A stretch of DNA of 64,000 bases from Candidatus Woesearchaeota archaeon (GTDB taxonomy: Archaea; Nanobdellota; Nanobdellia; Pacearchaeales; GW2011-AR1), in the NCBI GenBank assembly GCA_964572995.1, contig CAZNIA010000001.1:5611-69610 (forward strand), given 5' to 3'. The position numbers were made by a program, and so were the translations under genes. Below the pieces are notes generated by a model, which saw only the letters and a program-made list of their open reading frames with translations, was not told the DNA's origin and searched no databases. The first letter of the stretch is position 1, and every line of letters begins with the position of its first letter. This document shows positions 419 through 51,971 of this stretch, one piece after another.

Positions 419-3400
419 TTAAAATATTTCAACGTAAAACGCTGCAGTTTTTGTGTCTTCTGAGTTATATTCTCTTAATCTTGCTGGAACTCTCAGTTCA
501 TAATCATAAGTACCATAAGTACCTGTGCTCTGTTTATTTATTGGAGAAATAAAAACTAAATCTTCCTTGTCAGCTAAATCAAATTCTCCAGAACTTCCAT
601 TTGTATCATCTGAAAAATCCCAAAGTATTCCTGTTACAAAATTAGAATTATTTGTTGAATTTATTATTGGAACTTGTTGTAAAAGATGGTTAAATGAATA
701 AATATTCTGAACATATTTAGGAACTCCTGAGTTTGTATAAACAGAATAAACTGAATCTTCAAAAGAATTTGTATCTAATGCTAAATCTATTTCCAAGAAA
801 TCAGAATTGCTATCTAAATTTAATTTATTTTTTCCTATTGCTTGCAAACTTGTCCAAGAAACATAAGAATCATAATCAGCAACATAAATATTTCCTTGAT
901 TGAAATTCTGCGTGCTCCAATTAATCAATTTGGTTGAATTGCTGTTTGCTAAAACAAGATTACTTGAGGTTAAAACATCTCCATAAAAGAAATGCCATGA
1001 ACCTACACTAATCATTTTAGACGCTTTGTTGTTGGATTCATTTAATTCTATATGTGTTCCGTTTGTAGCCAAAGGAGGATCAACTAAAACAAAAATCTCT
1101 GAAGAGCCTATTTGAGAGAACCAAGTTTGAGTTAAGTTAACTTGTCCAAATTTAGAGATGTTTGTAAATATATCTGAGCCTATCTTATACCCTCCTGAAT
1201 CAGGATCTCCGTTATAAAAACTAACTGTTACATTGGTTATATCTGCTCCTGCAAGATTTCTTATTGTTGCTATTATCTCTATTGTTTGATTCTCTCTTGG
1301 AGAAGTTTCATTTAAAAATATTTCTGAACTGTTCACTGAAAAATCTGGATAAGTTAAATTAAATTTCCTTAGTTCGCTTGTGTTTGTATTTCCTAACTGA
1401 TCCCAACAAGTTAAATTCCAAGAGTGTTCTCCTTGTCCTAAGACTGAAGTTAAAACATATTCTCTCTTTGAAGTTGCATTTGTAACCCAAACATTTGGTC
1501 TTCTAACTATTCCATCTATTGTTAAATTACATTGAAGGGTGTTATCTAAAACATCTATTGCTGTCCAATTAAAATAAACTCTGTCAAGATTATAATCTAT
1601 CCCAGAATTATTTTCAGGAGAATTTAAAAAAATAGATGGAGGGGAAACATCTCTGTAGAATATTCTTTCTGTTGACCAATTCCAATTATCATCTGAATCA
1701 CTGCAGTTTACTGTCCAGTTATGCATACCTTCGGGAATTCCGGTTACACTGAAATTATTAAGAATATTTTCTGGTACAGAAGAGTTTGTTGAATTTAATA
1801 CCCCATCAATATATAAACTGCAACTTTTTATATCTATTAAATCGTAAGGGATATATGAAAAATTAATCCAAGAACTTGTTGTCCTGAAATTTTCTATTGG
1901 ATTGATTAACTCTATTTGGGGAGGAGCTTCAACTGTAAAATTAATGATCTCACTGTAATTTGAATTGGATGCGTTGTCTGAGCAGTCTATTTTCCAAAAA
2001 TGATTTCCATCACTTAATATGGAATATCTTAAGATATTTGAATTGTTCTGATAAACATGTGATGATTCTAATTCTCCATCTAATGTGAAATTACAAAGAA
2101 GATGTTCTGCGAGATTATCCCAAGATGAAAAATTAAAAGTGACATTGTTGGAAGTTATTACTTGTGATTCATAAGGAGAATTTAATCTGATATTAGGAGA
2201 TTGTAAATCAACATAAAATCTTCTTTCAGAATCTATCCCTGTTAAACCTGTAGGATCTGTTACATTTATATTCCAGAAATAAGAACCATCTGAAAATCCG
2301 TTAATTGAGAAAGTATTGTAAGCTTGATTTATTATTTGAGAAGAATTACTTCTATTGTATATTCCGTTTATATAAAGTGAGGCATTTACTATCCCTCCGT
2401 CATCTTCTGGAAGATAAGTTAATTCAAAAGAGCTTGTGTTAAACCAAGTATTGTTTTCAGGAGAAATCAATGTTACTTTGGGTATTGTATATCTTGTAAA
2501 ATTGAATGTTTGACTTGCATTTATATTTCCTGAACCATCCCAACAAGTTAAATTCCAAACATTATAACCGTCTGCTATCCCTGAAATTGTTCTACTTGTA
2601 ATTGAACCATTGTATACTGTAAAATTAATGTCTCTTACAGGAGAATTTACAGTTAGATTACAAGAAAGATTTGAATCAATATAATCTGTAACAGTGAAAT
2701 TAAATGTTATATTTGAAGCATAGATATCATCTCCTTTAGGATAAAGAATATTTATTTGAGGTGGAGTCCTATCTGCGTAGAATGTTCTTGTCTCAGACTG
2801 ATTGATTAAACCAATGTAATCTCCGCAACGTACATACCAAGTATAAATCCCCTCAGGATGATTATTAAGGTAAAAGTAATTTTGTTGATTGTTTAATATC
2901 GGAGTTGAATTGGATTGATTAAGAGCCCCATTTATATAAAGGCTACAAGAACTTAAATTAGTGTTATCTGAAGGAGTGTAAGTTAAAGAGATTAAAGAAG
3001 AATTAAATTTAGAGTTGTTTGGTGTGTTGAGAACTACCTGAGGATATTCTGTTATATTAACTGACCAAGTTGAACTAATATTTGAATGAAGAGCATCATC
3101 TATACAAGTAACATTCCAGAATTTAACTCCATCTGTGAGATTATAAATTAATCTTGAAGAAACTTCTCCGGAATTTGAACTAAATTCATCAACTATTAAT
3201 CCATTAATAGTTAAATTACAATTTAAAGAAGAATCAAAACTATCATTAACTGTGAAATTGAAATAAACATCTGAATTCAAAGAGGTTCCAGAATTTGAAG
3301 GAGCATGGAGAGTTATAGATGGTTTGTACAAATCCATACTGAAATTTCTAGGAGAAGGCTTATAAGGGCTTGAACTTAAATCAAAACACTCAACAGTCCA

Positions 3401-6400
3401 GTTGTAATATCCTTCTAAAAATCCTTCAACATCGAAAGCATTATTTTGATAATTCATTATTGGTGAAGAATTTGTTTGATTGAAAACATTATCTATGTAC
3501 AAACTACAATTCAATAATCCTGAATTATCTGTAACATTGTAGATAAAAGAAATTACCCCGTCATTATCCAAATAATTTGGAGATGGAGAAACCAAGGTGA
3601 TATTTGGAGGAGTGTCTGAAATATTGAAGCTAAATGTTGAACTTGTAAAGTTTCTGAAAGCATTATCAGTACATGTTGCATTCCAATAATGTATTCCTCC
3701 TGTTAAAATTCCTGAAGAAACATTTGTGATAGCGTGACTTGTTGCCCATACTGAAGAAGGTAAAAATTCTCCATCAAGCATAATCTGACAGCTTAAATTT
3801 GTATCCATATTATCTGTTGCATTGAAACTTAAATTTAATTCATTGACTTCAAAAGAATCTCCTTCTCCAGGATAAATCAATGAGACATTTGGATTAATTA
3901 AATCAATATAAAATCTTCTTTGAGCAGTAGTATTTCTGTATCCTGCCTTGTCTGTTACATTGACTGTCCAATTGTATTCTCCGCTTGTGAAATTTATTGT
4001 GAAATTGTTGTAAGCATTGTTTATTATAGGAGTGGAATTTGTAAGATTAATTGCTCCATTGATAATTAATTCTGAAAGAGTTATGCCATTATTTAAATCA
4101 GAAACATTGTATGTTAAATTTAATTCTCCTTGTGAAAACCATTGATTATCTGAAGGAGATATTAAAAAAACACTTGGAGGAATACCTGTTTGGACATAAA
4201 ATTGTGTTTGATTTTCAATTAGAATTGTTTTAATACTAGTATTAATTGTAATATTATAATTACCGAATTCTGAAGGAGGAGTGAAATTGTATTTATAATT
4301 TCCATTTGAATCTGTTGTAAGGGCAGTGTAATTAAAAGTTAAATCTTTTAATACAGGAGATAAAGAAGGGGTTGTTGAAGTTAGTTCGACTTTATACTGA
4401 AGATATCTGCTGTAAATATTTGAATCATTTATTAAACCTCCATTTGAAACTTCTTTCCAAGATGTCCAAATTAATTTATCATTGGATGTTCTTATGTAAA
4501 CTTTAGCATTAGTACATTCACTTGATTGATATGCTACAGTTAATAGAGGTCTCTCTGAAGTTGTTGAATATTCACTGCTTCTGATATTTATTCCATTGCT
4601 TGTAGGCATGTTGAATATCCATCCATAATTTTCAGTTCCAGAAGCCCAACTCTTTAAAGAATTAGTTACATTTATTGTATATCCTCCAATTGAAGAAGCT
4701 GTAAAAGAATCATCCGCAGTTGTAGAACGTGAAGGACTTCCCGCACACCCTGTAGAACTCCAAGAAGTTCCAGTTAACCTGTTGTTATATGTTACTTCAT
4801 TCTCTGTCCAATTTTCTAGAATCTGATATACACTTACTTGATCTCCTGTATCTGAAACATAAAAAGTCAAATTAGCATTGTTTATAGTAGAGTTTTCAGG
4901 TATTTGATTGAATCCTTTTCCAATAATATCTTTAAATAGAATTAATCCTCTATCTGATGTTGGAGAACCATCTATTATTATTGAAGAGCCTGAACCATAA
5001 TTAATATTTGGGAACCCGCTACTAATATAACTGTCTTCTCCTCCATAATATAAATTAGAATCTCCGTATTGATAAGAGGAAACTCCTGAACAAGAAGCAC
5101 CTTGAAAGCTCCAAGACAAATTATTCCAGTAAACCATTGCACCTGCATCTAAAATCTTTGTGAAATTACCGTATGTCTCTCCATCAGATAATGTAAGATT
5201 TTGATTGTTTTCTATTTCGATGTTGTAAAATGTTCCTTGGGAGAATTCACTATTAGAAGTTTCCAAGAACTCTTTATAAAAATCATAAGTTCCTTCAGGA
5301 GTTAAATTTTGTAAAAATAATAGTTTTCCATTTAACCATAAATTAATTGGATAATTTGAAAGATTAGTTGAATTAGATAAATTAATATGTCCGAAAACTG
5401 AGATATTTACGGGAGATTCTATATAAAATTGACTAAGATTAATTGATGCGTTTCCTCCTAAAACAGTGAAATTAGAAGAGTAATTTATCTGAGAGCCTAA
5501 TGTATCATTTGCATAAATTGTGTAATTATAAAAGCCCCCCCAAGTTTGATTTGTTGGGATATCTGCTTTCCATAAAAAATTACCCAGATTAGTAAAGAAC
5601 ACTTTTACTTTTTCAATTCCTCCTACAACTGATTGCCAAACAACAACCCAAACATAATTGGTATTTACATCAGAGACATTAACAAAGAGTGTTAAATCTT
5701 CTCCCCTATTCAACCAATTAGTATTATTGATTATTCTGTTGTCTTCTCCTGTTTGATTAATAAAAGTTATTTCTGGTGCAGATAAATCATAATAAAATAC
5801 TCTTGTTTCGCTCCATGAAGAATTTCCGATTAAATCTGTTGCACGAACTCTCCAGTAATAAGTTCCTTCTTGAGTGATTCCTGTTGGTAAAATCCAAGTT
5901 GGAGAAGAAGTTTCAGGGATACTATAATTTGCAAAGACTATTGAAGAAAAATCTGAAACATTACTTACTTGGATTATATAATAAATTGAATCTCCATTCT
6001 GATCTGTTGAATTTGTCCAATTTAATCTGGGTATTGTTGCATAAGCTGTTGAATTAAGTGGACGATAAAGCTGAGGTACAGAAGGAGGTACTTGACTAGC
6101 AATAGTTATGTTTATTGTTTGAGAATTTGAGCTTGTATTATAATATGTCTGATAATTTAGATTATTTGAAGTTACAAAAAACTCCCATACTGAATTTAAT
6201 TCTCCTGTTGCATTAACATTCCAATTTACATCACAGGAACCTCCTGAAGATTTCATGTTGCTTAAACAACTAAATGTGGAAGAATCAAGAGGATTAGGAG
6301 TAGTAGTATAAAATGGAGTTGCTCCTATGACTGTTGAAATAACTCCTTTTGTTTTTTCTTCTTTAATTCCAAATGAAACAAGATTATTTTGATTGTTTAC

Positions 6401-9400
6401 TATTTGATAGGACTGATTTATCCAAGCTGCACTCCTTGTAGTATTGGAAATACGAACTTCATCCATTGAACCATTGAAAAATCCTCCTGTGGCATCAACT
6501 ACTCCCTCTCCTATTTTAACTGAATAGGTGGAGGTTCCATAATTAGATGTACTTGAACCTCCTGAAACTGCTTGAACTCCGTCAAAGTAGAGTAAAAGAT
6601 TTGAACCTGTTCCAACTGCAGTGATGTGGTGCCAAGCATCTAAACTATAAGGATAAGCAACAGATGTACTTCCTCCTCCATCTGTCCAAATCATTACTGT
6701 ATTTGAACCGTCAAGAAAAAATTCAACTACATCATTCTGTCCTATTAAGCTAACTCTTGACCCCCAAACACGGGGTTTAATCCATCCTTCAATTGTAAAC
6801 GAGCCTAAGTTGCTCAAAAAATTTGCTGTTGAATTAAGCGCATCATTATTCCCATCTAATAAATCTGCTCCATCTATTTTACCTGAAGTTTTTTCATCAT
6901 TATCATATCCACTTGAGGTGAAGTTTCTTCTGTACTTGCTATCATATCTTGTTCCAGTTCCTGATTCCTCTAAATGCTGAACAGTTAAATAGTTGTTATC
7001 CCAGACGCTAATTGGATTTTGGCCTGAAGAAACATATGGATTATTATAATACATACAAATTTGATTTGTTCCTGGAACAAAAGAAGGAATATTTATCCAA
7101 ATATCTGCTTTAGAAGAAGTGTAATTTTCAACTTCATAACTTAAAGATAAATAAGTTCCTGTTGAACCACAAGAACCATTGATAAATCTTATATCATCGA
7201 AATCATTCTGCATTTCATATTCTTTTGATAAGTTAAGATAAATAGGAAAATTAGATAATAAAGTAGATCCGGAGTTGGTTATGTTTATTGTCTTTCTATA
7301 ATTCCAAGATTCGTTCCACCAATTAGGAGGATCTAAAGTAACATTAGCATTACCACATTCTCCATTTATGCAGTTTATCCTTGAGCTAAATGTGAAAAAA
7401 GAATTTTTCATTACACTTGTATCTGAATTTGGATTGAGTAGATCAATTGAAAATGAGCCCCAAGGAACTTCCCAAGTAGAGGAATTTGTTCTTGAAAGAG
7501 ACTCGCTATCATAACAGGTAGCCATTATCTGAAATTGACCAGAATCATTTACAATCAAGTCTGGATTATCTAATGTCCAATAACCATCTGAATCATCTTC
7601 AAAAGTAAAATTATTGAAGAAAGTATAAGAGTCTGGAATATTTGTTAAATTAATGGAAGCGTTGGTTACTCCTCCTTCGGGATCAGTACAAAGAACTCTA
7701 ACTCTTGTTATTGTATCTCCAAAAGCAATTGAACTGCAATTATACCAAATTCCATTCTTTTCACAATTTATTTGTCTTGGACTAGGTGGATTATTAGAAA
7801 CACTTACATTCAAAAATCTAGTCTCTGAATTTCCAGCTCTTCCTGCAGAATCAGTACAATTTACTTTCCAAGTATAAAATGAATTTGCCAGAACAAATGA
7901 AAAAGTTAAATTTACATTTTTATTTAAATTTGAAGCAGTATCTGCTATAGAGTTGTTGATTACAAGATTACAACTTTGTATTTCAGATAAGTCGGAAACA
8001 TTAAAAATAAAGTCAATTGTATTTGAATAAGTTATTGTAGTTGAATTTGAAGGAGAAATTAAACTAACTACAGGAGGAGAGGAGTCATAATAAAATACTC
8101 TTTCTTCACTCCAAGAAGAATTTGATTTTAAGTCTGTTGCTAAAACTCTCCAATAATATTTTCCTTCTTGAGTTATTCCTGTAGGAGTCACTCCTGTTAT
8201 TATTGATTGCTCGGGTATGCTGTAATTTGCAAAAACTATTGAAGAAAAATCAGAAGAATTACTTATTTGAATAGCATAATAAACTTTATCTCCTGTTGGA
8301 TCTTGAGAATTACTCCAATTAAATTCTCCTATTGAAGTTAATGCGCTGTTATTTGCAGGGAAGTTTAATTCTGGTATTTCTGGAGGAAGATTTCCAATTG
8401 TTATATTAATTGAAGAAGAAACATCACTTGAATTGAAATAATTCAAATAATTTGTATTGTTTGCATAAACAAAAAATTCCCAAACTGAACCGACTCTTCC
8501 TGTTGCATTTACTTGCCAAGTAATATTACAAGTTGTTCCTCCTTTCATATTTGCTAAGCAACTTGTACCCAAGTAATCCATAGGGTTTCTGGATATTGTA
8601 TAAAAAGGAGTATCTCCGATAATTGTTGAAATTAATCCTTTTGAAGGTTTTTCTGGGTCTCCTAAAGAATAAGTGGGCTCAACATCAATTAATTTTCTTA
8701 ACCATACATCATCGAATTCAGAAACATCCCAAGAGTGAAGAAGCATTCCTCCTGAAGAAGTTGCTGTGCTCGTTACATTAAATATTACTCCTCCATCTTT
8801 ATATGCAACTATTCTACTTCCAAAAGTATTTATTTCTAATTCATAAGGAACTCCGGCCATTGTTGAAATTGTAGTTGAACCAAGATTAGCAGTGTTGTGG
8901 TTTCCTGTTGTTAATTCCAATTGCCCATTTTGATAACCAAAAGTGTATCCTGATGTAGGGGAGAGAGCAGAACGTATTGAAACTTTTAAATCTGCATCAT
9001 CTACAACTTGATTTGCTAATACTCTTAAAGAATGATTATTTGTAGAAGTTGTTCTTGTTAAATCACTATCACCATTCATAGTATTTCTTACCCATCCATT
9101 AATTATTTCCCATGTACCTGTTGTTTCTGTCCAACCATTTCCTACTGTCCCGCTATTTGCTCTGTTGAAATTATCAAAAAAGTCAAATACTCTGCTTCCA
9201 TTATTTGGAGGGCTAGAAGCTTCAGAATTAGTGTAATACATATAATAATTATCATCATATCCTCCAGCAGGAATATTAGATTGTATTCTAAACCAGATAT
9301 TTGTTGAATCAATATTGAAAAATGTGTCGTTGAATCTGTCTAATTCTATGTTATGAGAACCGTTCCAATGCACGATTCTTAAATCATCTCCATCATCTTG

Positions 9401-12253
9401 AAAATCTGTTCCTGTTGTGTCTACGACTAAAAGCATACTGTAATTTTCAACAAGAGTTAAAGAACTTGGATTAGTTATATTTATTAATCTTCTATTTTCA
9501 TAATCTAAATCCCACCAAGAACCTGTTGGATCTAAAGTTGCATTTACATTACCGCATTCTCCATTTATACAAGACACGCTTGCTGTAAAGTTAAAGAATT
9601 CATCTGGGTTTACATTAGTATTTGAGTTTGGATTTACTAAATTAACATCTAAACTTCCCCACGGTACATTCCAGTTTACAAAACCAGATGTTTGAGAAGA
9701 AGCCCCATAACAAGTACCTGTTAAATTAAATTCTCCTGAATCATTTATAGTTAAGTCGGGATTATTGTAAATCCACCAACTTGTTTCATTTGAAGAGGCA
9801 TTTAAATTGAAAAAAGTGTAAGAATCTGGAATATTTGTTAAATTGAAGCTTGCATTAGATACAACTCCTGTGCAATTAATTCTAACTCTTGTTAATACAT
9901 CTGAAAATCCCAATTCATTGCAATCTTTCCAAGAACCCAACTCTTCACACTGGATTTGAGCTGCAGAAGGAGGGTAATCAGAAGTTGTTAAAACATAAAC
10001 TGGAGTTGAATTCCTGTTTCCTGAAGTGTCATTAAAAAACCATCTATATCCAATAGGTGTTTGAGCTGTTGAAGAGAGAGCTTTAGTCACATTTGCCCAA
10101 GAAGGAGTTGAAGAAAAAGAAACAAAAGAATCATTGACCCAACTTCCAGAATTGTTTGTTGAAAATATATATCCTCCATTTGGATTTAAAGCATAATTAT
10201 CTGAAACATTTATTGCAAATCTTGTAGGTTTATCTGGGATTGTATTGTTTACAGAAACTCTGTTGTAAATTGGAGGAATTGTTTCTGCAGTATACTGAAC
10301 TGTAATTCCTACATAATCGATATAAATATAATCAGTAGAAGGGGTTCGATCATACTTACTACCCTCAACAACCACAATTAATTGATCGTTACTATCTATA
10401 TAACTGCTAATATCACTTGTTATATTTCTTGTTACATCTCCATTAACTGCAGGAGTTGTGCCTATTGGCATCCAAGTTGAATTTGCAAATCTCCAGATGT
10501 ATACTGTTGCTGTTTCTGCAGCATTATCATAACCTGTAAACTGAATAAAAATAGAAGATATAAAAGATGGATCCTCATTTATTGTGAAATTAAATCTGTA
10601 AAAGGGATAATCATTTCCATTGCCTGATGTTGGTCCAACCCTTGCATAAACCCCGTTTTCTGTTGAAAGAGCACCGTATTGTGCTAAAGAAGAATTTGTA
10701 CCTGACTGCCATCTATTTGAAGAAGTAGGCACCCCATAAACAGAATGCATACTTGAATTTACAGTATAAACTGTTTGAGGATCAATTATATGATCAAACT
10801 GTAAACTTCCTCCAACAACCTTTAAGTCAAATGTATCCTGCTGGTATTGAAGATTTGTTAAGTATACTTTGTTGTATTCGTTTGAAGCGAGGGCATTAAA
10901 TTGTGTGATTAATTCGCTTTTATTGTTTTCATAAACTTCAACTATTGGATTTCCTGAAATAATTCTTGGGAAGAGAGTTATATCTCTTGTACTATCCAAT
11001 GGAATTTCAAATGTAACTCTTACATATTCATTGTCTGAGATTGTTTCAGACCAAATATCATCAAGTTCTTTGACATCCTGATAGATATTTGAAATAAAAT
11101 ATTTGTTTGAATCTAAGTGTTCTGCTTTTGTTATAAGGATTATCTCAAAAGTTTGAGTCGATAAATGAGGGGCTATCCATTCTACATAATCCAAAAATCC
11201 ATTTCCATCTGTATCAGCGGCATTGAAATCTAGATAAGTGTTGTTTTCTTTCCAGTAAATTTTAATTAACTCTTCTTGTCCTGATGCTAATTTTTCAGGG
11301 ATGTTGGTGTATGCTAAAACTTCTTTATAATGGACATCTTCTGGAGAAGATATAACAACTTCTTTTTTGTTTTCTGAGATAAACTTTTCATGCAAAATGG
11401 GGGATTCTGTTATATAATTCAAAGAAAGAGTCTCGGAAACATTACTATTAATTAAAACATACTCTTTTCCATCAACTTCCACAAAACTATAAGCTGTAAA
11501 AATCTCTCCTTTTTCATCTTTTAATTCTATACTTAAAAAAGAAGGAATTTCAAAGAAATTTCCTTCTTCCAATAAATTAATTTTTTTAATCCAACTTACA
11601 GGCTTTCCTATTTCCGCCTTCCCTTGAATTAATTTGGGTTCAATGTATTTAACTGAAAAGAAGATATATGAAGTTTTTCCATTACCTTTTATAAAATCAA
11701 CAGAATATTCTCCTTCTTCTAAAAGTTCAAATATGAATCTATCATTAGAGCCTAATCTTGATGTCCTTTTACCAGAGGGGCTAGTAATAATCAATTCATA
11801 ATTTCCAAGCCCATTAAAGTTAAACTCTAAATCTCTTCCTAAAAAATAAGTATTAGAATTCTGAAAATTAAATGAATAATTGGATATTAAAGATTCTTCT
11901 GAGATAATTTCCTCTGAATTTGTTTGCCCTAAATCTTCTTGTGTTCCATAAACTTGAAATTCTAATTTTTCAGAAGAATCAGTGTATTGTATGTCAAAGG
12001 TATATCTTCCTGGCTCTTTAAAAGTAAAAGAAAATTTATTTTCACAATCAACTTTTAAATCTTCTGAAGGTGTTTTTATTTTCATAAAACAAGAAGAAGA
12101 ATCTTGCAAGTTCAATTTTATTTCATCTCCAACAAAATAAGAATCTTCGTCAGATGCAGAACTAAAGAATAAAGAGAAAATTAAGATTAAGAGTAATAAA
12201 ATAGATAATATTCCTGTACCCAATTTTATAATTCCTTTTTTATCCATCTTCAT
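419..12253 (-). CDS. giant (3944 aa) N-glycosylated surface protein with N-terminal signal-anchor. It has a conserved head module, many ~90-100-aa beta-sandwich/FN3-like repeats, a LamG/concanavalin-like lectin domain, two DUF2341-like WxxRxxIxI(T/N)N modules, and a C-terminal CARDB domain plus conserved tail
   Basis: Single uninterrupted ORF. The N-terminal hydrophobic segment is ILSILLLLILIFSLFFSS. The protein is extremely rich in N-x-S/T sequons and N/S/T residues. The LamG-like block runs from GKIDGADLLDGNNDALNST to FNGSMDEVRISNT. An FN3-like terminal motif appears (YYWRVLATD..SNSSWSE). The CARDB-like block runs from NQTIEIIATIRNLAG to VSFYNGDP. Confidence 0.85.
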   Translation of the reverse strand: MKMDKKGIIKLGTGILSILLLLILIFSLFFSSASDEDSYFVGDEIKLNLQDSSSCFMKIKTPSEDLKVDCENKFSFTFKEPGRYTFDIQYTDSSEKLEFQVYGTQEDLGQTNSEEIISEESLISNYSFNFQNSNTYFLGRDLEFNFNGLGNYELIITSPSGKRTSRLGSNDRFIFELLEEGEYSVDFIKGNGKTSYIFFSVKYIEPKLIQGKAEIGKPVSWIKKINLLEEGNFFEIPSFLSIELKDEKGEIFTAYSFVEVDGKEYVLINSNVSETLSLNYITESPILHEKFISENKKEVVISSPEDVHYKEVLAYTNIPEKLASGQEELIKIYWKENNTYLDFNAADTDGNGFLDYVEWIAPHLSTQTFEIILITKAEHLDSNKYFISNIYQDVKELDDIWSETISDNEYVRVTFEIPLDSTRDITLFPRIISGNPIVEVYENNKSELITQFNALASNEYNKVYLTNLQYQQDTFDLKVVGGSLQFDHIIDPQTVYTVNSSMHSVYGVPTSSNRWQSGTNSSLAQYGALSTENGVYARVGPTSGNGNDYPFYRFNFTINEDPSFISSIFIQFTGYDNAAETATVYIWRFANSTWMPIGTTPAVNGDVTRNITSDISSYIDSNDQLIVVVEGSKYDRTPSTDYIYIDYVGITVQYTAETIPPIYNRVSVNNTIPDKPTRFAINVSDNYALNPNGGYIFSTNNSGSWVNDSFVSFSSTPSWANVTKALSSTAQTPIGYRWFFNDTSGNRNSTPVYVLTTSDYPPSAAQIQCEELGSWKDCNELGFSDVLTRVRINCTGVVSNASFNLTNIPDSYTFFNLNASSNETSWWIYNNPDLTINDSGEFNLTGTCYGASSQTSGFVNWNVPWGSLDVNLVNPNSNTNVNPDEFFNFTASVSCINGECGNVNATLDPTGSWWDLDYENRRLINITNPSSLTLVENYSMLLVVDTTGTDFQDDGDDLRIVHWNGSHNIELDRFNDTFFNIDSTNIWFRIQSNIPAGGYDDNYYMYYTNSEASSPPNNGSRVFDFFDNFNRANSGTVGNGWTETTGTWEIINGWVRNTMNGDSDLTRTTSTNNHSLRVLANQVVDDADLKVSIRSALSPTSGYTFGYQNGQLELTTGNHNTANLGSTTISTMAGVPYELEINTFGSRIVAYKDGGVIFNVTSTATSSGGMLLHSWDVSEFDDVWLRKLIDVEPTYSLGDPEKPSKGLISTIIGDTPFYTISRNPMDYLGTSCLANMKGGTTCNITWQVNATGRVGSVWEFFVYANNTNYLNYFNSSDVSSSINITIGNLPPEIPELNFPANNSALTSIGEFNWSNSQDPTGDKVYYAIQISNSSDFSSIVFANYSIPEQSIITGVTPTGITQEGKYYWRVLATDLKSNSSWSEERVFYYDSSPPVVSLISPSNSTTITYSNTIDFIFNVSDLSEIQSCNLVINNSIADTASNLNKNVNLTFSFVLANSFYTWKVNCTDSAGRAGNSETRFLNVSVSNNPPSPRQINCEKNGIWYNCSSIAFGDTITRVRVLCTDPEGGVTNASINLTNIPDSYTFFNNFTFEDDSDGYWTLDNPDLIVNDSGQFQIMATCYDSESLSRTNSSTWEVPWGSFSIDLLNPNSDTSVMKNSFFTFSSRINCINGECGNANVTLDPPNWWNESWNYRKTINITNSGSTLLSNFPIYLNLSKEYEMQNDFDDIRFINGSCGSTGTYLSLSYEVENYTSSKADIWINIPSFVPGTNQICMYYNNPYVSSGQNPISVWDNNYLTVQHLEESGTGTRYDSKYRRNFTSSGYDNDEKTSGKIDGADLLDGNNDALNSTANFLSNLGSFTIEGWIKPRVWGSRVSLIGQNDVVEFFLDGSNTVMIWTDGGGSTSVAYPYSLDAWHHITAVGTGSNLLLYFDGVQAVSGGSSTSNYGTSTYSVKIGEGVVDATGGFFNGSMDEVRISNTTRSAAWINQSYQIVNNQNNLVSFGIKEEKTKGVISTVIGATPFYTTTPNPLDSSTFSCLSNMKSSGGSCDVNWNVNATGELNSVWEFFVTSNNLNYQTYYNTSSNSQTINITIASQVPPSVPQLYRPLNSTAYATIPRLNWTNSTDQNGDSIYYIIQVSNVSDFSSIVFANYSIPETSSPTWILPTGITQEGTYYWRVRATDLIGNSSWSETRVFYYDLSAPEITFINQTGEDNRIINNTNWLNRGEDLTLFVNVSDVNTNYVWVVVWQSVVGGIEKVKVFFTNLGNFLWKADIPTNQTWGGFYNYTIYANDTLGSQINYSSNFTVLGGNASINLSQFYIESPVNISVFGHINLSNSTNLSNYPINLWLNGKLLFLQNLTPEGTYDFYKEFLETSNSEFSQGTFYNIEIENNQNLTLSDGETYGNFTKILDAGAMVYWNNLSWSFQGASCSGVSSYQYGDSNLYYGGEDSYISSGFPNINYGSGSSIIIDGSPTSDRGLILFKDIIGKGFNQIPENSTINNANLTFYVSDTGDQVSVYQILENWTENEVTYNNRLTGTSWSSTGCAGSPSRSTTADDSFTASSIGGYTINVTNSLKSWASGTENYGWIFNMPTSNGINIRSSEYSTTSERPLLTVAYQSSECTNAKVYIRTSNDKLIWTSWKEVSNGGLINDSNIYSRYLQYKVELTSTTPSLSPVLKDLTFNYTALTTDSNGNYKYNFTPPSEFGNYNITINTSIKTILIENQTQFYVQTGIPPSVFLISPSDNQWFSQGELNLTYNVSDLNNGITLSELIINGAINLTNSTPIINNAYNNFTINFTSGEYNWTVNVTDKAGYRNTTAQRRFYIDLINPNVSLIYPGEGDSFEVNELNLSFNATDNMDTNLSCQIMLDGEFLPSSVWATSHAITNVSSGILTGGIHYWNATCTDNAFRNFTSSTFSFNISDTPPNITLVSPSPNYLDNDGVISFIYNVTDNSGLLNCSLYIDNVFNQTNSSPIMNYQNNAFDVEGFLEGYYNWTVECFDLSSSPYKPSPRNFSMDLYKPSITLHAPSNSGTSLNSDVYFNFTVNDSFDSSLNCNLTINGLIVDEFSSNSGEVSSRLIYNLTDGVKFWNVTCIDDALHSNISSTWSVNITEYPQVVLNTPNNSKFNSSLISLTYTPSDNTNLSSCSLYINGALNQSNSTPILNNQQNYFYLNNHPEGIYTWYVRCGDYIGLINQSETRTFYADRTPPQINILYPKGDDIYASNITFNFTVTDYIDSNLSCNLTVNSPVRDINFTVYNGSITSRTISGIADGYNVWNLTCWDGSGNINASQTFNFTRYTIPKVTLISPENNTWFNTSSFELTYLPEDDGGIVNASLYINGIYNRSNSSQIINQAYNTFSINGFSDGSYFWNINVTDPTGLTGIDSERRFYVDLQSPNIRLNSPYESQVITSNNVTFNFSSWDNLAEHLLCNFTLDGELESSHVYQNNSNILRYSILSDGNHFWKIDCSDNASNSNYSEIINFTVEAPPQIELINPIENFRTTSSWINFSYIPYDLIDIKSCSLYIDGVLNSTNSSVPENILNNFSVTGIPEGMHNWTVNCSDSDDNWNWSTERIFYRDVSPPSIFLNSPENNSGIDYNLDRVYFNWTAIDVLDNTLQCNLTIDGIVRRPNVWVTNATSKREYVLTSVLGQGEHSWNLTCWDQLGNTNTSELRKFNLTYPDFSVNSSEIFLNETSPRENQTIEIIATIRNLAGADITNVTVSFYNGDPDSGGYKIGSDIFTNISKFGQVNLTQTWFSQIGSSEIFVLVDPPLATNGTHIELNESNNKASKMISVGSWHFFYGDVLTSSNLVLANSNSTKLINWSTQNFNQGNIYVADYDSYVSWTSLQAIGKNKLNLDSNSDFLEIDLALDTNSFEDSVYSVYTNSGVPKYVQNIYSFNHLLQQVPIINSTNNSNFVTGILWDFSDDTNGSSGEFDLADKEDLVFISPINKQSTGTYGTYDYELRVPARLREYNSEDTKTAAFYVEIF

Positions 12254-12483
12254 TTCTTAATTTGCCAAAGGTTTATTCTTCCAACACGAAATCCAATGAC
12301 CTTTTGATTTAATTGAAGTCTTAAGCAACGAGTTTGAATAGAATGCCAAGGCTTTTGTATTTCATCTGCAATTTCCTGGGTGGATTTAGGATTTATAGAA
12401 TTTAATAAAGACTTAACTATCTGTACTTCCAGCACATCCTCTTTTTTGCGATTAACCGTACGGTTAATCTTACTTTTAATCAT
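12250..12483 (-). CDS. small (77 aa) winged-helix DNA-binding protein; its stop codon overlaps the start of giant gene 1
   Basis: The segment STQEIADEIQKPWHSIQTRCLRLQLNQKVI has HTH-like character, and there is a 4-nt stop/start overlap at 12250-12253. Confidence 0.5.
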   Translation of the reverse strand: MIKSKINRTVNRKKEDVLEVQIVKSLLNSINPKSTQEIADEIQKPWHSIQTRCLRLQLNQKVIGFRVGRINLWQIKK

Positions 12484-31900: not shown

Positions 31901-34900
31901 TCTAAATGCTGAACCATCATATAATTAGAATCCCAAACTTTCGATGGGTTTTGCTGATTTGCTGAATTTGAATTATTATAATACATATAAAAAACATTAT
32001 TTGAAACAGAAGAAAGATTAACTTTAATCCAAGCAATAAGATGGGCATGAGTTGAATTGTAATTTTTATCAAATAATTCTATTTCGTGATTCAATTTATT
32101 CTTTCCATCTAAAGAAGTAAATAATATATCATAACCATCTGTTCTTGAATAATCGTGCAATGCCGCATCATAAATATCAATTAACATTGGGAAATTAGTA
32201 AGATTTGCTGTTATCTTTGATGAAGATACATTAATCTGCCTTCTTTTATTCCATTCTGAGTGATACCAACTTGACCAGGATAGAGTCTGATTATTATGCC
32301 ATCCTCCATTCCAGGTTCCATATAGTGAACAGAAACCCAATCCATCTGAATCCATTGCTGTAAAGTTAAAAAAGTTATTTTGAAGGGAATTAAAATAAGT
32401 TTTATTAGTTGGAGTAACAAGAGTTATTGCTGGCCCAGTGGTTGATACTGAAAAGCTAACTTCCACTATAGATAAATGATTGAGAGTGTCATTAGAATAA
32501 AAATTAAGACTATGAGTTCCTTCACTTGTATCAAAAGTGGTATTTGTTCCACAGGCGATTGTTTGATTTACCTGATTGTCTATATTCCACCAACACATGC
32601 TTACGCCTGCAACATTATCTCTTATAGTATAAGTTAAAGGAAGGCTGGAATTATAACTATAAGCCTTGAGTTCTGGTTCAAGAATATCTACTGTGGGTCC
32701 AACTGTATCTAACCCTATTTTTCTTGTTAAAGTTGAATTTATATTGTATGCTAAATCGATTACAGTAACATTATAATAATAAACTCCATCATTTAAATCT
32801 GTCCAGTTAATCTCTCTTCTTGAATCATTATAAGTTGAAGAATTGAAAAGATTGTATCCTGAATCATAAAGATTAAATGTAACATTTGCTTCATTCAATT
32901 CTGTAACAGAAAGATTTACATAAATCCAGGTTCTTGAAAAGTTTGCATTGTTCTCTTCTGTACTAGAACTAAAAGAAATTAAAGAATAAGTAGTATCAAT
33001 AATTATTGTATTATTTTGTGTTTGGAAATTATTTCCTGATAAATCAAAGATATTATAAAACCATTTGAAAATTCCATCATATAAAAAGTTGTAAACTATT
33101 CCTGTAATTATATCTGTTCCTGAGATATCTTGAGTAGTCTCATTTATTAAATTAGTTTCATTGTATACAAATAAAGTCATATTTGATAGGCCATAATTGT
33201 CAGATGCATTTAATGTAAAATTCTGCAAAGAGGAATTTAAATAAGTATTATTCTCAGGAGAGACCAAGGTTGCATTTGGATTTTCTAAATCTATAATCGC
33301 AAATTGGGTTTCATTATAATAAATAGAATAATTAAAAAAATCATCTCTCATCATTGAAAAATTGTAAATGCCTACTGCCAATTCCTGTTCTGAGTTATTT
33401 GATATGAATGTTCCGTTTCTATATAATGTGAAAGGAGTTGTACAATTTGCCCAGACTAAAAAAACATCTGAATAATTTAAGGGACTAGTTGCATTGAATA
33501 AAACCTGACAATTTTCTGGATTTTTATTTAATGTAAAAAAACTTGTGTTATAAATAAAAGAATAATTTGAAGTGTCTGTTCTTTGAGCTGTAAAATTGAA
33601 ATATCCTGCCCCATTTATTTGTTCTGAATTATTTAATATTATTGTCCCATCTCTATATAACGTAAATGTGGAAGTGGCATTTGCCCAGACTAAAAAAGTG
33701 TCAGGATAAGTTAATGGACTGGTTGAATTGAATAAAACTTGAAAGTTTTCTGGGTTTTTATTAACAGTAAAGAATTGTGTATTTATTATGTTTGTATAAT
33801 TTGCAGTGTCTGTTCTTTGTACTGTTAAATTATAATATCCTGCCCCTGAATTAATCAATGAATTGTTTGAAGTTATTGTTCCGTTTAAATAAAAGGTGTA
33901 ACCTGATGAACAATTTGTATATGCAATAAATGTTTCAGGATAAGTTATTGGAGAAGTTGCATTGAAATAAACTCCACAATCATAATAGCTTGATTTATTT
34001 ATCTGAACTGTATATCTTGTCCAATTGATATTATTAGCTGTATCATTAATTGTAACATTAATTTCATAGTTACCTACTGCCAAAGAGGTTGCATTACTTA
34101 AAAATCCTGATTGATTTATTGAAAACCTTGTATCATTAACAGAATAATATCCAAATTCAATGTCGTCTGTTGCATCGAAGTCTACACCCAGAGATTCATT
34201 TCCATAAAAGAGTGATTCATTATCTGGAATCTTTGTAAAATATGGAGGAATAGTATCAACAATTCTAAATTGCGTCTGATTAAATAGCATAGAATAGTTT
34301 TGAGTGTCTGTCCTAAACATTGAAAAATTATATGCACTAACAGACAATACCTGTTCCGAATTATTTGAGATTAATGTTCCGTTTCTATATAATGTAAAAG
34401 GGGTTGTGCAATTTGCCCAGACTAAAAAGGTGTCAGGATAAGTTAATGGACTAGTTGCATTGAATAAAACCTGACAATTTTCGGGGTTTTTATTAACAGT
34501 AAAGAATTGTGTATCAATTATTTTTGAATAATTCTGTGTGTCTGTTCTTTGTACTGTTAAATTATAATATCCTGCCCCTGAATTAATCAATGAATTGTTT
34601 GAAGTTATTGTTCCGTTTAAATAAAAGGTGTAACCTGATGAACAATTTGTATATGCAATAAATGTTTCAGGATAAGTTATTGGAGAAGTTGCATTGAAAT
34701 AAACTCCACAATCATAATAGCTTGATTTATTTATCTGAACTGTATATCTTGTCCAATTGATATTATTAGCTGTATCATTAATTGTAACATTAATTTCATA
34801 GTTACCTACTGCCAAAGAGGTTGCATTACTTAAAAATCCTGATTGATTTATTGAAAACCTTGTATCATTAACAGAATAATATCCAAATTCAATGTCGTCT

Positions 34901-38827: not shown

Positions 38828-38828
38828 A

Positions 38829-42046: not shown

Positions 42047-42047
42047 A

Positions 42048-48324: not shown

Positions 48325-48451
48325 TTTTTATTACCAAGGATATATTGGAGTGCTATCCTTATATGAATATTGCCATCTATTTATTTAAATCTTCTTAAAA
48401 AAACATCAATAAAATGAAAAACTTTATAAAGTACATTTTGATTATTCTATA

Positions 48452-48658
48452 ATGCCTAAAAAGGACTTAAATGAGACTAAATCTAAAAGCGCTACAGTTA
48501 AGGGGACTATACCTTTAAATCAAAAAGAAGCGATTAGGAAATTAATAGGAGTTATTGGAAGCAATGAACAAGATGTTGTTGGGAAAATTATAACATTGTG
48601 GCTATATAATGAAGGATATCTTGTTAGTAAAATAAAGAGAGGTAAACAAGATGAATAA
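48452..48658 (+). CDS. small (68 aa) hypothetical protein; its stop overlaps the start of the 1106-aa surface gene
   Basis: ORF with an 8-nt overlap onto 48651. It is a possible small regulator, with no clear motif. Confidence 0.35.
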   Translation: MPKKDLNETKSKSATVKGTIPLNQKEAIRKLIGVIGSNEQDVVGKIITLWLYNEGYLVSKIKRGKQDE

Positions 48659-51600
48659 AAAATTTCTGAATATGGTTTGGGTAATCTCATTATCGGTGCT
48701 GCTAATCTTTTTTATAACTGCAGAGGAAAATCCAGCTAATCTTTCCAAAGAAAATTCTTCTTCTACAACTCTTGTTTTAGATGGAATAGAATCTTTAAGT
48801 AATTTAGAAGATATTACTGAAAATAATTTTTCATTTAATTTAAATTCTTCTGAAATTAATGAAGAAGAAACTCCTGAAATTTACACAAATTACAATTTAA
48901 ATCAAACAAATATAACGGGGGATTTGTCTAAAGAAAATTCTAAAGATACAATAAAAAACAATATTAGTAACGGGAGTAGTAGTACTTTGGATAATAATCA
49001 AGTTAATTCAACATTTCATTCTACAATATTATCTAAAGAGGGAGGCTCTTCTGGATCTAATTATATTGGTTTAGAAGAGTTAAATGAGTTAGATGAAAAT
49101 ATTTCTGAAGGGGCCCAAGTAGATTATTATGATGCCTTGCCCACAGATGCAAATTATACTTCTTTGCAAATCCGGGGTAAAAAGGAGATAGATATCGGAG
49201 GGTATGGAGAAATAAAAATAACCAAAGAAGAATTTGAAAAGAGTGAGTTTGAAAAAGAGGTGATTATTTCTAGCGAAGAGCATTATGAAGGGTATCTAAG
49301 AGTTTATGCTTCTCCAACACAAGAATCTAAGGAAGACTACATAAAAATATACTGGAAGAATCAAGAAGATTTAGAAATTACAAATATGGATGAATTTTCT
49401 GTAGAATATTATGATGAAAATGAAAACGGATTGATTGATAGAATCTCTTGGATTGTTCCGCATTTAAGTGAACAAAGATTTGATATTGTTATAAAAACAA
49501 ATTTTAGTGATAATGATAATCTAATTATTTTAGACGTTGAAGCTCCTTCAAGCTTAGCAATAAATCCTATAGAATTTAGGGTAAATGTAAGTTATGATTT
49601 TCCAGAAAAAATAAATTGCTCTTTAGAATTGAAAAAAGATGCTACAAGAATGTTTTTTGAATATTTTGAGGTCACAAATGGAACAATTGGAACTCCTAAT
49701 TTGCAGAATGGAAATTATACATGGGAGATAATTTGTTTTGATGTAGATAATTCAAACGCTTCGGCTAAAATTGGGGCTTTTGAAATTTCAGAAGACTTTT
49801 CTTCTTCGTTAGTAGAAGGAAAATTATATTTCTTAAATTTGGTTGAAAATAAAATAAAGAATCCTGAAACGATTATAATAAATTCCAGCACACCCTCCAA
49901 CTTTTCTGTAGATATAATTAAAAATGGAGGAGCAATTGTATTTAATAAATATTATTTGAACTCTGCTTCTCTTTTAATGAATGAAACAATCCTAAATAGT
50001 TATGGAAATTACGCATTAAGAGTATCTTTCAACGAGCCCTCTCCAGAATACGTAATATTAACTAACTTTTCTGTAACAAGTGCAAATATCAACATCAATA
50101 CTACAAATATAGAAGAAGGGGAATCTGTGAAAATTACCGCAAATGTTAATTCTCCAACCAAAATGATTTCCACAATAATCTTGGATTATGGGGATGGAAC
50201 AAATGATTATCGTGCTTCAAATTCAAATTCTTTCTCTGGAGAATTTACCAAAAAGTACAATCAGAAAGGCACTTATTCTCCTAAATTAATTATAACTATT
50301 CTTGGAGGAGATACATTTAATATTACTAAAAATGGTATAACTGTAACAGAAGCTGAAGACCCAGAAGACAAAGACCCTCCTTCTATAACCTTGTATGACC
50401 CTGCACACAAAGAGGTTCTTGATGAGGAAATAATAAATTTCTCATATAAAGCAAGCGATAATATTAAAATACAAAATTGTACATTTAAATTATATAATAA
50501 TTGTGCTTCTCTGAATTCTTGTTCAACAGGAGATTCTAACCTTATTTTTCCTCTAAATTCTCAACAAAGGGCAATTGCAAACAACTATTCTATGCAAAAC
50601 AATAAAGAGACTGTAATAAAATTACAAGATTTTGAAGATGGAATCTATTTATGGGAGGTGGAATGCTATGATAACTCTTCAAATTCTGATTTTGAGTGGA
50701 ATATTTTTCAAATAGCAAAGGATAATACCACTATTGTTTCGTCTGATTATGAACAAAAGGAAGAAATAGGGGCATTAAAGGAGCAAGCAGATAATTTCCT
50801 TAACTATGGTTTTGATCTTGAAGAGAAAGAGGTTTTAGACGGTTTAAACATAATAAATGAAACTAAATATTATAAAAAAAGACTTTTAGACATTCAAGAT
50901 TTCTTTGAAGAAAATTACAAATATGTTTCCACAGAAGAATTAAGGGAGAGAAAGACTGAAGAATATATCCAAGAACTAGAAAAAATAAAGAATAGTATAC
51001 CTGTAGACATCAGTGTAGAAGAAGATTATGAATATATCAAAAACAGTATGGATAAAGAATTCAAGGAAATTATAGAAGAATACTTTTCTTCTACAAATAC
51101 TCAGCTAAGTAAAGCTTCTTTAAGAAAATTAGAAGAGATAAATAAAGAAATACAAAATGAGATTTCTGTTTCCACAAATATTAAAAGAGTTAGCATAAAA
51201 TATGAAAACGGAACTCAAGAAATGGTTTTTATAAAAAAGAAAGTGGCCCTTAATGATGGTTCTTATAGTAGTCTTTTAGAGATAATTCCTGAAGAAATTG
51301 TTGAAGATCCTGCAGACATAGTCTTTATTACAGAAAAAAGAAGAGTTGGAGAAGGAAACATGTTTGAAATAGATTATGATGATTTAATTAATGGTGAAAT
51401 AATTTATTATATAACAAAACCAATAAAATTAAAAGATATTGAAAATACAGAAACTGTCTTATTTGAAGAATACTTAACAAACGTTGAAACAAGAGTCACG
51501 GGTTTCTTTGTTTTTAGTGGCGTTTCTGAAGATTTAACTATTTACATTGTAATTGCTTTTATTCTGTTAATTGTGTTGTTGGTTATCATTCCAATTGTGA

Positions 51601-51971
51601 TTAAAAAATTCAAGATGATTAGCTGGAAAAAGGAACCAAATGTGGTTAAGGTCATACATTTAATTGAAGAAATAAACCGGTTGTTGAAAGAAAGAGAAAT
51701 TGAGAAAGCGAGAGAGAATTATTATAAAATAAAAGAAATATATCCTGTTTTGCCTTATAAAACAAGGCCGTACTTTTACAAGAAGATAAGTGAAATGCTG
51801 GTTAAAATAGACAAAAAAGACATTTTTGGGTTAGTTAAAGAATATCAGGAAGCTAAAAAAAGATGGGACAAAGAGAACCTTATGAGATTATATGAAGACA
51901 TAAAAAAGATATACAAAAGGCTTCCAGAAAAAGACAGAAAAAAAGTATATGATATAATTAATGGGTACTAA
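48651..51971 (+). CDS. large surface protein (1106 aa). It shares the conserved head module with the two giant proteins, and has a C-terminal TM anchor plus two copies of the cytoplasmic tail motif
   Basis: Signal peptide. EVIISSEEHYEGYLRVYASPTQESKEDYIKIYWKNQEDLEI...ENGLIDRISWIVPHLSEQRFDIVIKTN is homologous to the giant head module. TM helix IYIVIAFILLIVLLVIIPIVI, then EKARENYYKIKEIYPVLPYKTR and MRLYEDIKKIYKRLPEKDRKK. Confidence 0.75.
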   Translation: MNKKFLNMVWVISLSVLLIFFITAEENPANLSKENSSSTTLVLDGIESLSNLEDITENNFSFNLNSSEINEEETPEIYTNYNLNQTNITGDLSKENSKDTIKNNISNGSSSTLDNNQVNSTFHSTILSKEGGSSGSNYIGLEELNELDENISEGAQVDYYDALPTDANYTSLQIRGKKEIDIGGYGEIKITKEEFEKSEFEKEVIISSEEHYEGYLRVYASPTQESKEDYIKIYWKNQEDLEITNMDEFSVEYYDENENGLIDRISWIVPHLSEQRFDIVIKTNFSDNDNLIILDVEAPSSLAINPIEFRVNVSYDFPEKINCSLELKKDATRMFFEYFEVTNGTIGTPNLQNGNYTWEIICFDVDNSNASAKIGAFEISEDFSSSLVEGKLYFLNLVENKIKNPETIIINSSTPSNFSVDIIKNGGAIVFNKYYLNSASLLMNETILNSYGNYALRVSFNEPSPEYVILTNFSVTSANININTTNIEEGESVKITANVNSPTKMISTIILDYGDGTNDYRASNSNSFSGEFTKKYNQKGTYSPKLIITILGGDTFNITKNGITVTEAEDPEDKDPPSITLYDPAHKEVLDEEIINFSYKASDNIKIQNCTFKLYNNCASLNSCSTGDSNLIFPLNSQQRAIANNYSMQNNKETVIKLQDFEDGIYLWEVECYDNSSNSDFEWNIFQIAKDNTTIVSSDYEQKEEIGALKEQADNFLNYGFDLEEKEVLDGLNIINETKYYKKRLLDIQDFFEENYKYVSTEELRERKTEEYIQELEKIKNSIPVDISVEEDYEYIKNSMDKEFKEIIEEYFSSTNTQLSKASLRKLEEINKEIQNEISVSTNIKRVSIKYENGTQEMVFIKKKVALNDGSYSSLLEIIPEEIVEDPADIVFITEKRRVGEGNMFEIDYDDLINGEIIYYITKPIKLKDIENTETVLFEEYLTNVETRVTGFFVFSGVSEDLTIYIVIAFILLIVLLVIIPIVIKKFKMISWKKEPNVVKVIHLIEEINRLLKEREIEKARENYYKIKEIYPVLPYKTRPYFYKKISEMLVKIDKKDIFGLVKEYQEAKKRWDKENLMRLYEDIKKIYKRLPEKDRKKVYDIINGY

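Follow-up and report, generated by a model that had tools for sequence, protein, structure and literature searches.

Three surface-protein genes in one Woesearchaeota window

The window analysed here is a stretch of 64,000 nucleotides (nt) from a Candidatus Woesearchaeota archaeon (assembly GCA_964572995.1, contig CAZNIA010000001.1, forward-strand positions 5,611 to 69,610; about 30% G+C), and it holds, all within 52 kb, the genes of the giant surface proteins G1 and G2 and of a smaller protein, P3 (Table 1). An initial annotation had listed three open reading frames (ORFs) of 3944, 3680 and 1106 amino acids (aa), each opening with a hydrophobic segment, exactly as the window has them, and had proposed that all three carry one N-terminal head on divergent, repeat-rich bodies. 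G1 and G2 do have in common a conserved cassette, divided here into predicted domains A and B, while P3 carries domain A only. This cassette is a large, previously undescribed, DPANN-wide domain family, without a model in Pfam or NCBIfam. A six-frame scan of the window with a hidden Markov model (HMM) of the cassette found no fourth carrier.

Table 1. Features of G1, G2 and P3, with their positions in the window and the analyses that define them
Feature	Position (nt)	Strand	Basis
G1, 3944-aa giant surface protein	419..12253	-	ORF list, BLASTP, Pfam, hydropathy, repeat search
G1 aa 1-34, either signal peptide or signal-anchor: basic MKMDKKGIIK, hydrophobic segment of ~20 residues, SSAS	12152..12253	-	Kyte-Doolittle scan only
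G1 domain Z (aa 205-279), starts LIQGKAEIGKPVSW	11417..11641	-	alignment with G2, comparison of loci
G1 predicted domain A (aa 280-375), IKIYWKE and WIAPHLSTQTFEII hairpin	11129..11416	-	family alignment, AlphaFold2 model, conservation
G1 calcium-type loop DTDGNGFLDYVE (aa 347-358)	11180..11215	-	conservation, 115 homologues
G1 predicted domain B (aa 376-492), AEHLD...YVRVTFE...DITLFPR...QDTFDL...FDHIIDP	10778..11128	-	alignment, AlphaFold2 model, Foldseek, hhalign
G2, 3680-aa giant surface protein, head as in G1, other repeat-rich body	25966..37008	-	ORF list, BLASTP, Pfam, repeat search
G2 predicted domain A (aa 207-300)	36109..36390	-	alignment, HMM
G2 calcium-type loop DTNENGLLDYIE, inside domain A	36160-36195	-	
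G2 predicted domain B (aa 301-417)	35758..36108	-	alignment, HMM
P3, 1106-aa protein	48651..51971	+	ORF list, Pfam, hydropathy
P3 predicted domain A (aa 186-287)	49206..49511	+	shuffle test, HMM, AlphaFold2 model, family alignment
P3 loop DENENGLIDRIS, Ser not Glu at position 12	49413-49448	+	
P3 transmembrane segment (aa ~957-993)	51519..51629	+	hydropathy, family comparison
P3 cytoplasmic tail, 113 aa, Lys/Glu-rich	51630-51968	+	

G1 is organised as an N-terminal signal or anchor segment, immunoglobulin (Ig)-like domains, domain Z, domain A, domain B and a repeat-rich body in which Pfam recognises DUF2341, Big_7, LamG_3, Big_13 and CARDB. The head of G2 is clearly related: in BLASTP, G1 128-492 and G2 44-417 form an alignment of 380 columns with 55% identity (E = 4e-120), and both proteins continue from the signal segment into one or two small Ig-like domains that they have in common. 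The stretch from EVVI to EVYE (G1 298-442, G2 225-367), for which about 70% identity had been given, is 68.3% identical. Over domains A and B the identity is 66%, and the same codon is used at only 57% of the identical residues, which indicates that G1 and G2 are old paralogues whose similarity was maintained by selection on the protein; the same codon comparison rejects a recent duplication or gene conversion, and the cassette is under strong purifying selection.

The heads of G1 and G2 are single-copy and their bodies are internally repetitive. In particular, repeats lie within residues 736-3659 of G1 and 436-3392 of G2, where they reach 92% identity; none were found in P3 at E 1e-4, and the description of the bodies as repeat-rich holds for the two giants only. 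Two body blocks are common to both, G1 913-1201 with G2 2869-3157 (59% identity) and G1 1602-1961 with G2 1527-1900 (51%). G1 and G2 carry these blocks, which contain DUF2341 and LamG_3, in different orders, so that module shuffling reaches into the bodies. Within G2, residues 701-900 and 945-1144 are 89% identical and residues 673-800 and 917-1044 are 92% identical, suggesting a recent repeat expansion. Further, G2 residues 586-666 match the phage tail-fibre Gp53-like C-terminal domain of Pfam (E = 3e-6).

P3 is built differently, from a signal peptide, a low-complexity linker, domain A by itself, an ectodomain with a PKD-like stretch, a transmembrane helix and a cytoplasmic tail. Its residues ~198-285 align with G1 297-377 (40% identity) and G2 224-302 (43%), and nothing wider does. 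The 160 residues between its signal peptide and domain A are rich in N, S, T and E and give no alignment with G1 or G2, domain Z is absent, and the family HMM matches P3 (E = 2e-28) at profile positions 11-117 only. A region of about 350 aa, proposed for all three proteins, is therefore present in G1 and G2 (~380 aa) and shrinks in P3 to ~85-100 aa at ~40% identity. Within these limits the likeness is one of positional conservation and not of N/S/T bias, with a Smith-Waterman score for P3 of 165, against 34 ± 6.5 and a maximum of 66 for 2000 shuffled sequences.

Moreover, P3 belongs to a conserved family of its own, type I membrane proteins in which only domain A of the cassette occurs. There are 43 relatives at E ≤ 1e-5, nearly all full-length ones being about 1,050-1,220 aa long; all 43 have domain A alone, at about residue 190-300, and most carry the loop variant DENxNGLIDR(I/V)SW. 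Nearly all full-length relatives have a signal peptide, and also a transmembrane helix whose distance from the C-terminus is about 130-150 residues. P3, whose own helix spans residues 957-993, is accordingly no third copy of the common head; domain A is reused there in a different architecture.

A conserved cassette, its anchors and its predicted fold

The family-wide conserved unit, defined by an alignment of 115 homologous segments, corresponds to G1 280-492 (~215 aa). Its consensus runs Y.T.AP...E....GK.V.I.GP...HYENVLAFT...IKIYW.EN...F...D.D.NG..DYVEWIVPHLSNQTFEII.ITKAEHLD.NR.FISDIY..VKELD..WSE.I and continues ....YVRVTFE.NLTS..DITIYPR..SG.P.IEVYE......IAEF......YNKVYLTNL...QDTFDL.V..GS.EFDHI.DP; 45 columns are at least 90% conserved over the 115 sequences, which were taken from clusters at 50% identity. 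When 1.84 billion cluster representatives (50% identity clusters) were searched with a cassette profile, 2,457 protein clusters matched with E ≤ 1e-3, 943 of them with E ≤ 1e-30; most are very large proteins, with lengths of up to 5,817 aa. Among prokaryotic genomes, one for each species, 322 cassette loci were found, almost all of them in DPANN archaea, and 80 were kept for comparisons. Nearly all of the 80 are titled Woesearchaeota, Pacearchaeota, Nanoarchaeota, Diapherotrites/Iainarchaeum or Parvarchaeota, and several genomes have two or more loci, as the window does. Across these phylum-level DPANN lineages, the identity of the cassette averages about 50%. No model in a 2025 copy of Pfam-A or in NCBIfam 20.0 covers domain A, B or Z, whether searched with the heads, the whole proteins or 25 homologues, and no description of the module was found in the searchable literature for its motif strings or for DPANN giant surface proteins. 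A match of the fragment P0001 to Tea_mid (PF22889) was judged spurious (25.3 bits against a cut-off of 27) and is absent from G1, G2 and P3.

Three of the 80 loci (L069, L074 and L076) lie in bins labelled Bdellovibrionales, Methanosarcinales and Amesbacteria, with G+C contents of 39-46% compared with a median of 33% for all loci. The N-terminus of the 'Amesbacteria' protein is of a typical DPANN type. These loci may reflect mis-binning or transfer.

The cassette marks a sharp boundary in conservation. All 80 carriers match G1 and G2 across it, and within a few hundred residues downstream the number of significant matches drops to 17 and then 4-5 for G1, and to 8 and then 1 for G2; these counts extend as far as the related loci do, which is only ~2,000 aa downstream of the cassette. 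The idea of a conserved N-proximal module on divergent bodies thus extends from this window to the whole family (80 of 80 over the module, 4-17 just downstream of it). Domain Z ('QG.AEIGKPVKW') is common to G1, G2 and 46 of the 80 related loci. No other Pfam domain is common to the 25 homologues, whose bodies have Big_13, LamG_3, beta-helix, Gly-rich and other modules. The anticipated adhesin-type domains are present in the bodies (Big_13, LamG_3, beta-helix and DUF2341), and an export signal or anchor is followed by a long ectodomain of tandem Ig-like, LamG or beta-helix modules, which is the architecture of a modular giant surface adhesin. A Pfam scan of G1, G2 and P3 found no S-layer domain.

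The position of the cassette relative to the membrane was examined in 121 homologues with a Met start and at least 600 aa, using a simple hydropathy scan. An N-terminal transmembrane segment is present in 115 of them. It is preceded by a cytoplasmic KYxxxxGKxxGPYxY motif in 46 homologues and by a cytoplasmic domain of ~85 residues in 31; a short signal or anchor like those of G1 and G2 is found in 24, another transmembrane segment in 14, and none was detected in the remaining 6. The 77 homologues with a cytoplasmic N-terminal part must be type II anchored, so that their cassette is found at the end of the ectodomain nearest the membrane. Between the transmembrane segment and the start of the cassette lie 125-680 residues, and some homologues also have a C-terminal transmembrane segment with a short basic tail. 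A membrane-proximal module, as had been suggested, therefore fits most homologues. Its proposed role as the determinant of anchoring or secretion does not, as the module is a predicted extracellular pair of beta-sandwiches that is combined with three kinds of N-terminal anchor.

The cytoplasmic parts are themselves distinctive. The motif, 'MVYKRYIKRGGKxFGPYYYESYRD..GK', spans ~35 aa (46 of 121; for example P0023, P0025 and P0029), and the ~85-aa domain is helical (31 of 121; for example P0066, P0070 and P0077). A Sigma70_r4_2 match occurs somewhere in the protein in 3 of the 25 homologues scanned. From these cytoplasmic modules, some cassette proteins might signal to, or bind, something intracellular.

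An AlphaFold2 model of G1 280-497, calculated from a 38-sequence alignment, is all-beta with a predicted local distance difference test score (pLDDT) of 93.1 and a predicted template modelling score (pTM) of 0.73. The strand pattern of this model and the separability of the two parts suggest two domains, A (G1 280-375) and B (376-492). The cassette is normally single-copy, and the extra A-only or B-only copies in several homologues, a minority, show that the two can be separated. Domain A is predicted to be an eight-strand beta-sandwich containing a calcium-type loop followed by a WIVPHLSxQ hairpin, and a model of P3 181-289 (pLDDT 82.4) has the same strand order. Domain B is predicted to be a jelly-roll-like beta-sandwich, with a weak resemblance to a carbohydrate-binding module (CBM), that ends in FDHIxDP. 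An origin of A and B by internal duplication is ruled out (hhalign probability 0.4%). Several polar, exposed-looking residues are more than 90% conserved (R412, E416, D424, T426, H379 and D398), and the D491-P492 pair at the end of domain B is conserved in 95-98% of homologues.

Structural searches returned only distant similarities. Against PDB, Foldseek gave 13 matches to the two-domain model at E ≤ 1e-3 (6e-5 to 1e-3) with query-normalised template modelling scores (TM-scores) of 0.22-0.31; all are weak, and they comprise the C-terminal domains of Vip3, the CBM32 region of EngBF, the CBMs of GH98 and GH30 proteins, allantoicase, the discoidin domain of DDR1 and the collagen-binding domain of ColG. 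Domain A alone (the P3 model) found nothing in PDB better than E 0.16. In the viral library BFVD, the matches were generic sandwiches, including an SD-repeat B-domain protein (query-normalised TM-score 0.37), F5/8 type C, CBM-cenC and tail-fibre proteins.

In five homologues, a loop of domain B is interrupted by 258-743 aa of intein-like sequence (P0049 at aa 768, P0081 at aa 590, P0121 at aa 686, P0144 at aa 549 and P0158 at aa 170). The insertion starts (C/S)YD(S/N)ETE(I/V)LT..GWK and ends ...WSGN|S, and its flanks rejoin to LTNL...SQDTFDL; one of the 25 homologues scanned has a Pfam Intein_splicing match. The equivalent site in G1 is at aa ~467-472 (nt ~10838-10855), and G1, G2 and P3 are without the insertion. 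Inteins are unusual in extracellular structural proteins.

The calcium-type loop of G1, D-T-D-G-N-G-F-L-D-Y-V-E (347-358), lies between two strands of domain A, and its putative ligand pattern is nearly invariant among the 115 homologues. D occupies positions 1 and 9, and D or N position 3, in all 115 of them; position 5 has N or, less commonly, D in 114, while G is found at position 6 in 99 homologues and E at position 12 in 105. A profile search of PDB sequences found mainly EF-hand proteins at the loop, all weakly (best GCAP3, E = 0.005), and the Pfam EF-hand models PF00036, PF13202 and PF13405 score 11-16 bits there against cut-offs of about 25. The loop agrees with an EF-hand loop at positions 1, 3, 5, 6, 9 and 12, but in the AlphaFold2 model it is single and unpaired and is flanked by strands (E65-67 and E77-84) instead of helices. 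These predicted flanks argue that the calcium-type loop is set in a beta structure, and an EF-hand domain is rejected on the strand flanks, the single loop and the sub-threshold Pfam scores. A dockerin is likewise rejected: two tandem calcium loop-helix segments of ~22 residues and a Pfam Dockerin_1 match would be expected, and the beta-sandwich of domain A contains a single loop and gives no such match. Domain A contains the Dx[DN]xDG loop motif, which, according to PMC3123361, binds Ca2+ in at least twelve structural contexts, EF-hands included. On the strength of this sequence pattern, we infer that domain A probably binds Ca2+.

Possible roles of the cassette

The reading that we tentatively favour, at a likelihood a little short of even, is that the cassette is a calcium-rigidified, membrane-proximal base that links the anchor to exchangeable adhesive bodies and possibly docks to the cell's own envelope. 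Under this proposal, the cassette would be the invariant base of giant surface proteins, and bound Ca2+ would rigidify domain A, so that the base could bear the load of an adhesive body of several thousand residues. The conserved polar faces of domains A and B would touch a constant part of the cell's own envelope (S-layer, glycan or membrane complex) and not a variable host target, and the variable distal body would bind the host or substrate. A constant partner is the more likely because the module is constant across lineages, paralogues and three anchor types.

Several points weigh against this proposal. The function is a proposal drawn from sequence and a predicted model, and the putative Ca2+ site of domain A is read from its sequence. 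The weak CBM-type matches of the domain B model are equally compatible with ligand binding. No conserved neighbour gene points to a partner, the commonest neighbour family being found in only 15 of the 80 loci. The domain A of P3 lies ~700 residues from the sole certain anchor of that protein, which is C-terminal, and domain A is thus not obligatorily membrane-proximal. Further, the N-terminus of G1 and G2 could be either cleaved or retained.

The domain B matches are the starting point of a different explanation, somewhat unlikely in our assessment, in which the cassette is a lectin-like head whose domain B jelly roll and domain A calcium loop bind a host or polymer glycan, making it the business end of the protein and not its base. 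It is consistent with the Foldseek matches, all of which are carbohydrate-binding or discoidin-type sandwiches, with the CBM-cenC, F5/8 type C and tail-fibre matches in the viral library, with the many exposed-looking polar residues that are more than 90% conserved, and with the distance of the P3 domain A from its C-terminal anchor. However, the query-normalised TM-scores are 0.37 or lower throughout and no Pfam CBM matches, about 50% identity is retained across DPANN lineages with presumably different hosts, and several paralogues in a genome carry the same cassette on different bodies, which would be unusual for host recognition; in type II anchored proteins, moreover, the cassette is at the anchored end. 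The opposite extreme, a purely structural spacer in which an Ig-like and jelly-roll pair is kept for folding or export without a specific partner, appears improbable. Tandem beta-sandwiches are the usual building blocks of giant adhesins, the folds predicted here are generic and without a close solved relative, and the lack of a conserved neighbour gene in the 80 loci would be natural for a spacer. Yet Big_13, Big_7 and CARDB spacers repeat and diverge fast, whereas the cassette is normally single-copy, fixed in position and the most conserved part of the protein, and its strands have alternating conserved polar positions (Y-V-R-V-T-F-E, D-I-T-I-Y-P-R), which suggest a conserved surface besides the conserved core.

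The D491-P492 pair sits precisely where the conserved part gives way to the variable one, and H379, D398, R412 and D424 are nearly invariant, as they might be if the cassette were a maturation or autoprocessing module, for example one in which cleavage or covalent attachment at Asp-Pro releases the body from the anchor or fixes it there. We consider this very improbable, as the motif is its whole basis, there is no similarity to SEA, GAIN, Hint, thioester or isopeptide domains, and the cassette is without a conserved Cys or a conserved Lys/Asn pair; the lack of an invariant Cys and of an invariant Lys/Asn pair also led to the rejection of an isopeptide, a thioester or a catalytic triad. There is, finally, next to no chance that the similarity is an artefact of N/S/T low complexity or of a recent duplication or gene conversion in one genome. 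G1 and G2 are rich in N, S and T (32-34% together) and the three genes are close to one another, but the alignment score is 20 standard deviations above shuffles, the conserved columns recur across the family, the synonymous sites of G1 and G2 have diverged, and thousands of homologues exist in other genomes; shuffles, conservation, homologues and codons together exclude both forms of artefact.

The favoured base has an analogue in the staphylococcal Sdr adhesins, whose calcium-stabilised Ig-like B domains transmit force to the anchor (PMC6232131). Like the cassette, the B repeats of SdrD and SdrG are small beta-sandwiches with EF-hand-like Dx[DN]xDG loops that are situated between the anchor and the ligand-binding part. 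They are CnaB-type domains adjoining the cell-wall anchor; calcium gives them mechanical stability (PMC6232131), and a comparable stiffening of the cassette would be by analogy. The viral 'SD-repeat B domain' protein ranks second by E-value and has the top TM-score (0.37) in BFVD, a weak link, and no sequence or Pfam match connects the two. An Sdr B domain has three calcium sites and occurs in a tandem array, in contrast to the single loop, single copy and two unrelated domains of the cassette; the Sdr proteins are bacterial with a C-terminal LPXTG anchor, whereas the cassette is archaeal with an N-terminal membrane anchor. Membership in the Sdr B or CnaB type is accordingly rejected, given no Pfam match, a single copy and a structural match that is weak only.

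Other comparisons are looser. The integrin or FG-GAP-type DxDxDGxxD hairpin loops are another Dx[DN]xDG calcium-loop family. CBM32, CBM35, discoidin domains and Vip3 domains IV and V are sandwiches of a size similar to domain B and are the sole folds that Foldseek returned from PDB at E ≤ 1e-3, but no sequence similarity and no alignable sugar-binding residues accompany those matches. In phage tail fibres and in S-layer proteins anchored by S-layer homology (SLH) domains, the end that attaches is conserved and the distal end varies. Cassette proteins resemble them, with no homology, in that the module at their attached end is invariant and their distal parts are exchangeable, and the cassette module is reused by several paralogues per genome. 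The argument made above for a constant partner takes the form that it has for such systems. Castelle et al. 2021 reported large extracellular proteins with murein-transglycosylase domains in Pacearchaeota and Woesearchaeota; G1 and G2 come from the same lineages and belong to the same class of very large extracellular or membrane proteins, and the accessible text of that paper (PMC8204110) does not mention the cassette. By Pfam, no transglycosylase domain was found in G1, G2 or P3, nor among the families of the 25 homologues.

By itself the cassette is of an ordinary kind, a conserved anchor-proximal module of modular surface proteins, and introduces no new type of mechanism. The lifestyle of DPANN archaea is one of attachment to other cells, and annotation is lacking for most of the large proteins on their surface. 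The cassette is the one element common to thousands of these proteins. With its profile, candidate genes for host interaction could be picked out in any DPANN genome, and the cassette marks the border between the constant and exchangeable parts of each protein. As a small domain pair that is predicted to fold well, it would also serve as an experimental tool for the DPANN cell surface, in those few DPANN-host systems that can be cultivated. It is also conceivable, though unlikely, that Z-A-B is a DPANN-specific, Ca2+-dependent device that docks exchangeable host-interaction giants onto one conserved envelope component (S-layer or membrane complex). Part of this reading is that the cassette coding sequence would be conserved enough for intein colonisation, which is unusual; if true, the device would be a lineage-wide surface-display system.

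Gene setting of the window

The gene order around G1 and G2 is preserved in a few Woesearchaeota metagenome-assembled genomes (MAGs), and the closest relative of G1 is found in a MAG labelled Diapherotrites (L010; 80% identity over 2,501 aa). Upstream of G1, a 77-aa ORF (12250-12483, minus strand), kept in 8 of the 80 related loci, shares 4 nt with G1 at the G1 start codon; by eye only, it resembles a winged-helix regulator. A 68-aa ORF (48452-48658, plus strand) overlaps the start of P3, is unrelated to the 77-aa ORF and has no match in the related loci.

At the far end of the window, a Cdc6/Orc1 gene is followed directly by those of the small and large subunits of PolD (57362-63757, plus strand), and intergenic stretches lie at 53458-54388 and 56944-57361. 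These replication genes show that the DNA is archaeal. The position of the Cdc6/Orc1-PolD genes suggests that the surface-protein island adjoins a replication origin region.

Two genes on the minus strand, 18774-22136 and 43928-46288, encode paralogous membrane-anchored HerA/DUF87-type ATPases (58% identity over 659 aa), both arranged as an extracellular N-terminal part, a transmembrane segment and the ATPase, with CarboxypepD_reg domains in the 18774-22136 protein. A 679-aa protein (46285-48324, minus strand) has an ectodomain in common with both at 25-28% identity. Together, the two ATPases and the 679-aa protein could be surface or transfer machinery encoded beside the giant-protein genes. 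The cytoplasmic tail of the 679-aa protein (46285-46800, minus strand) has a marginal likeness to that of P3, including a KIKE(I/M)Y motif, with a Smith-Waterman score of 74 against 46 ± 8 that was reached by 3 of 1000 shuffles; this weak similarity possibly reflects a common tail for a cytoplasmic partner.

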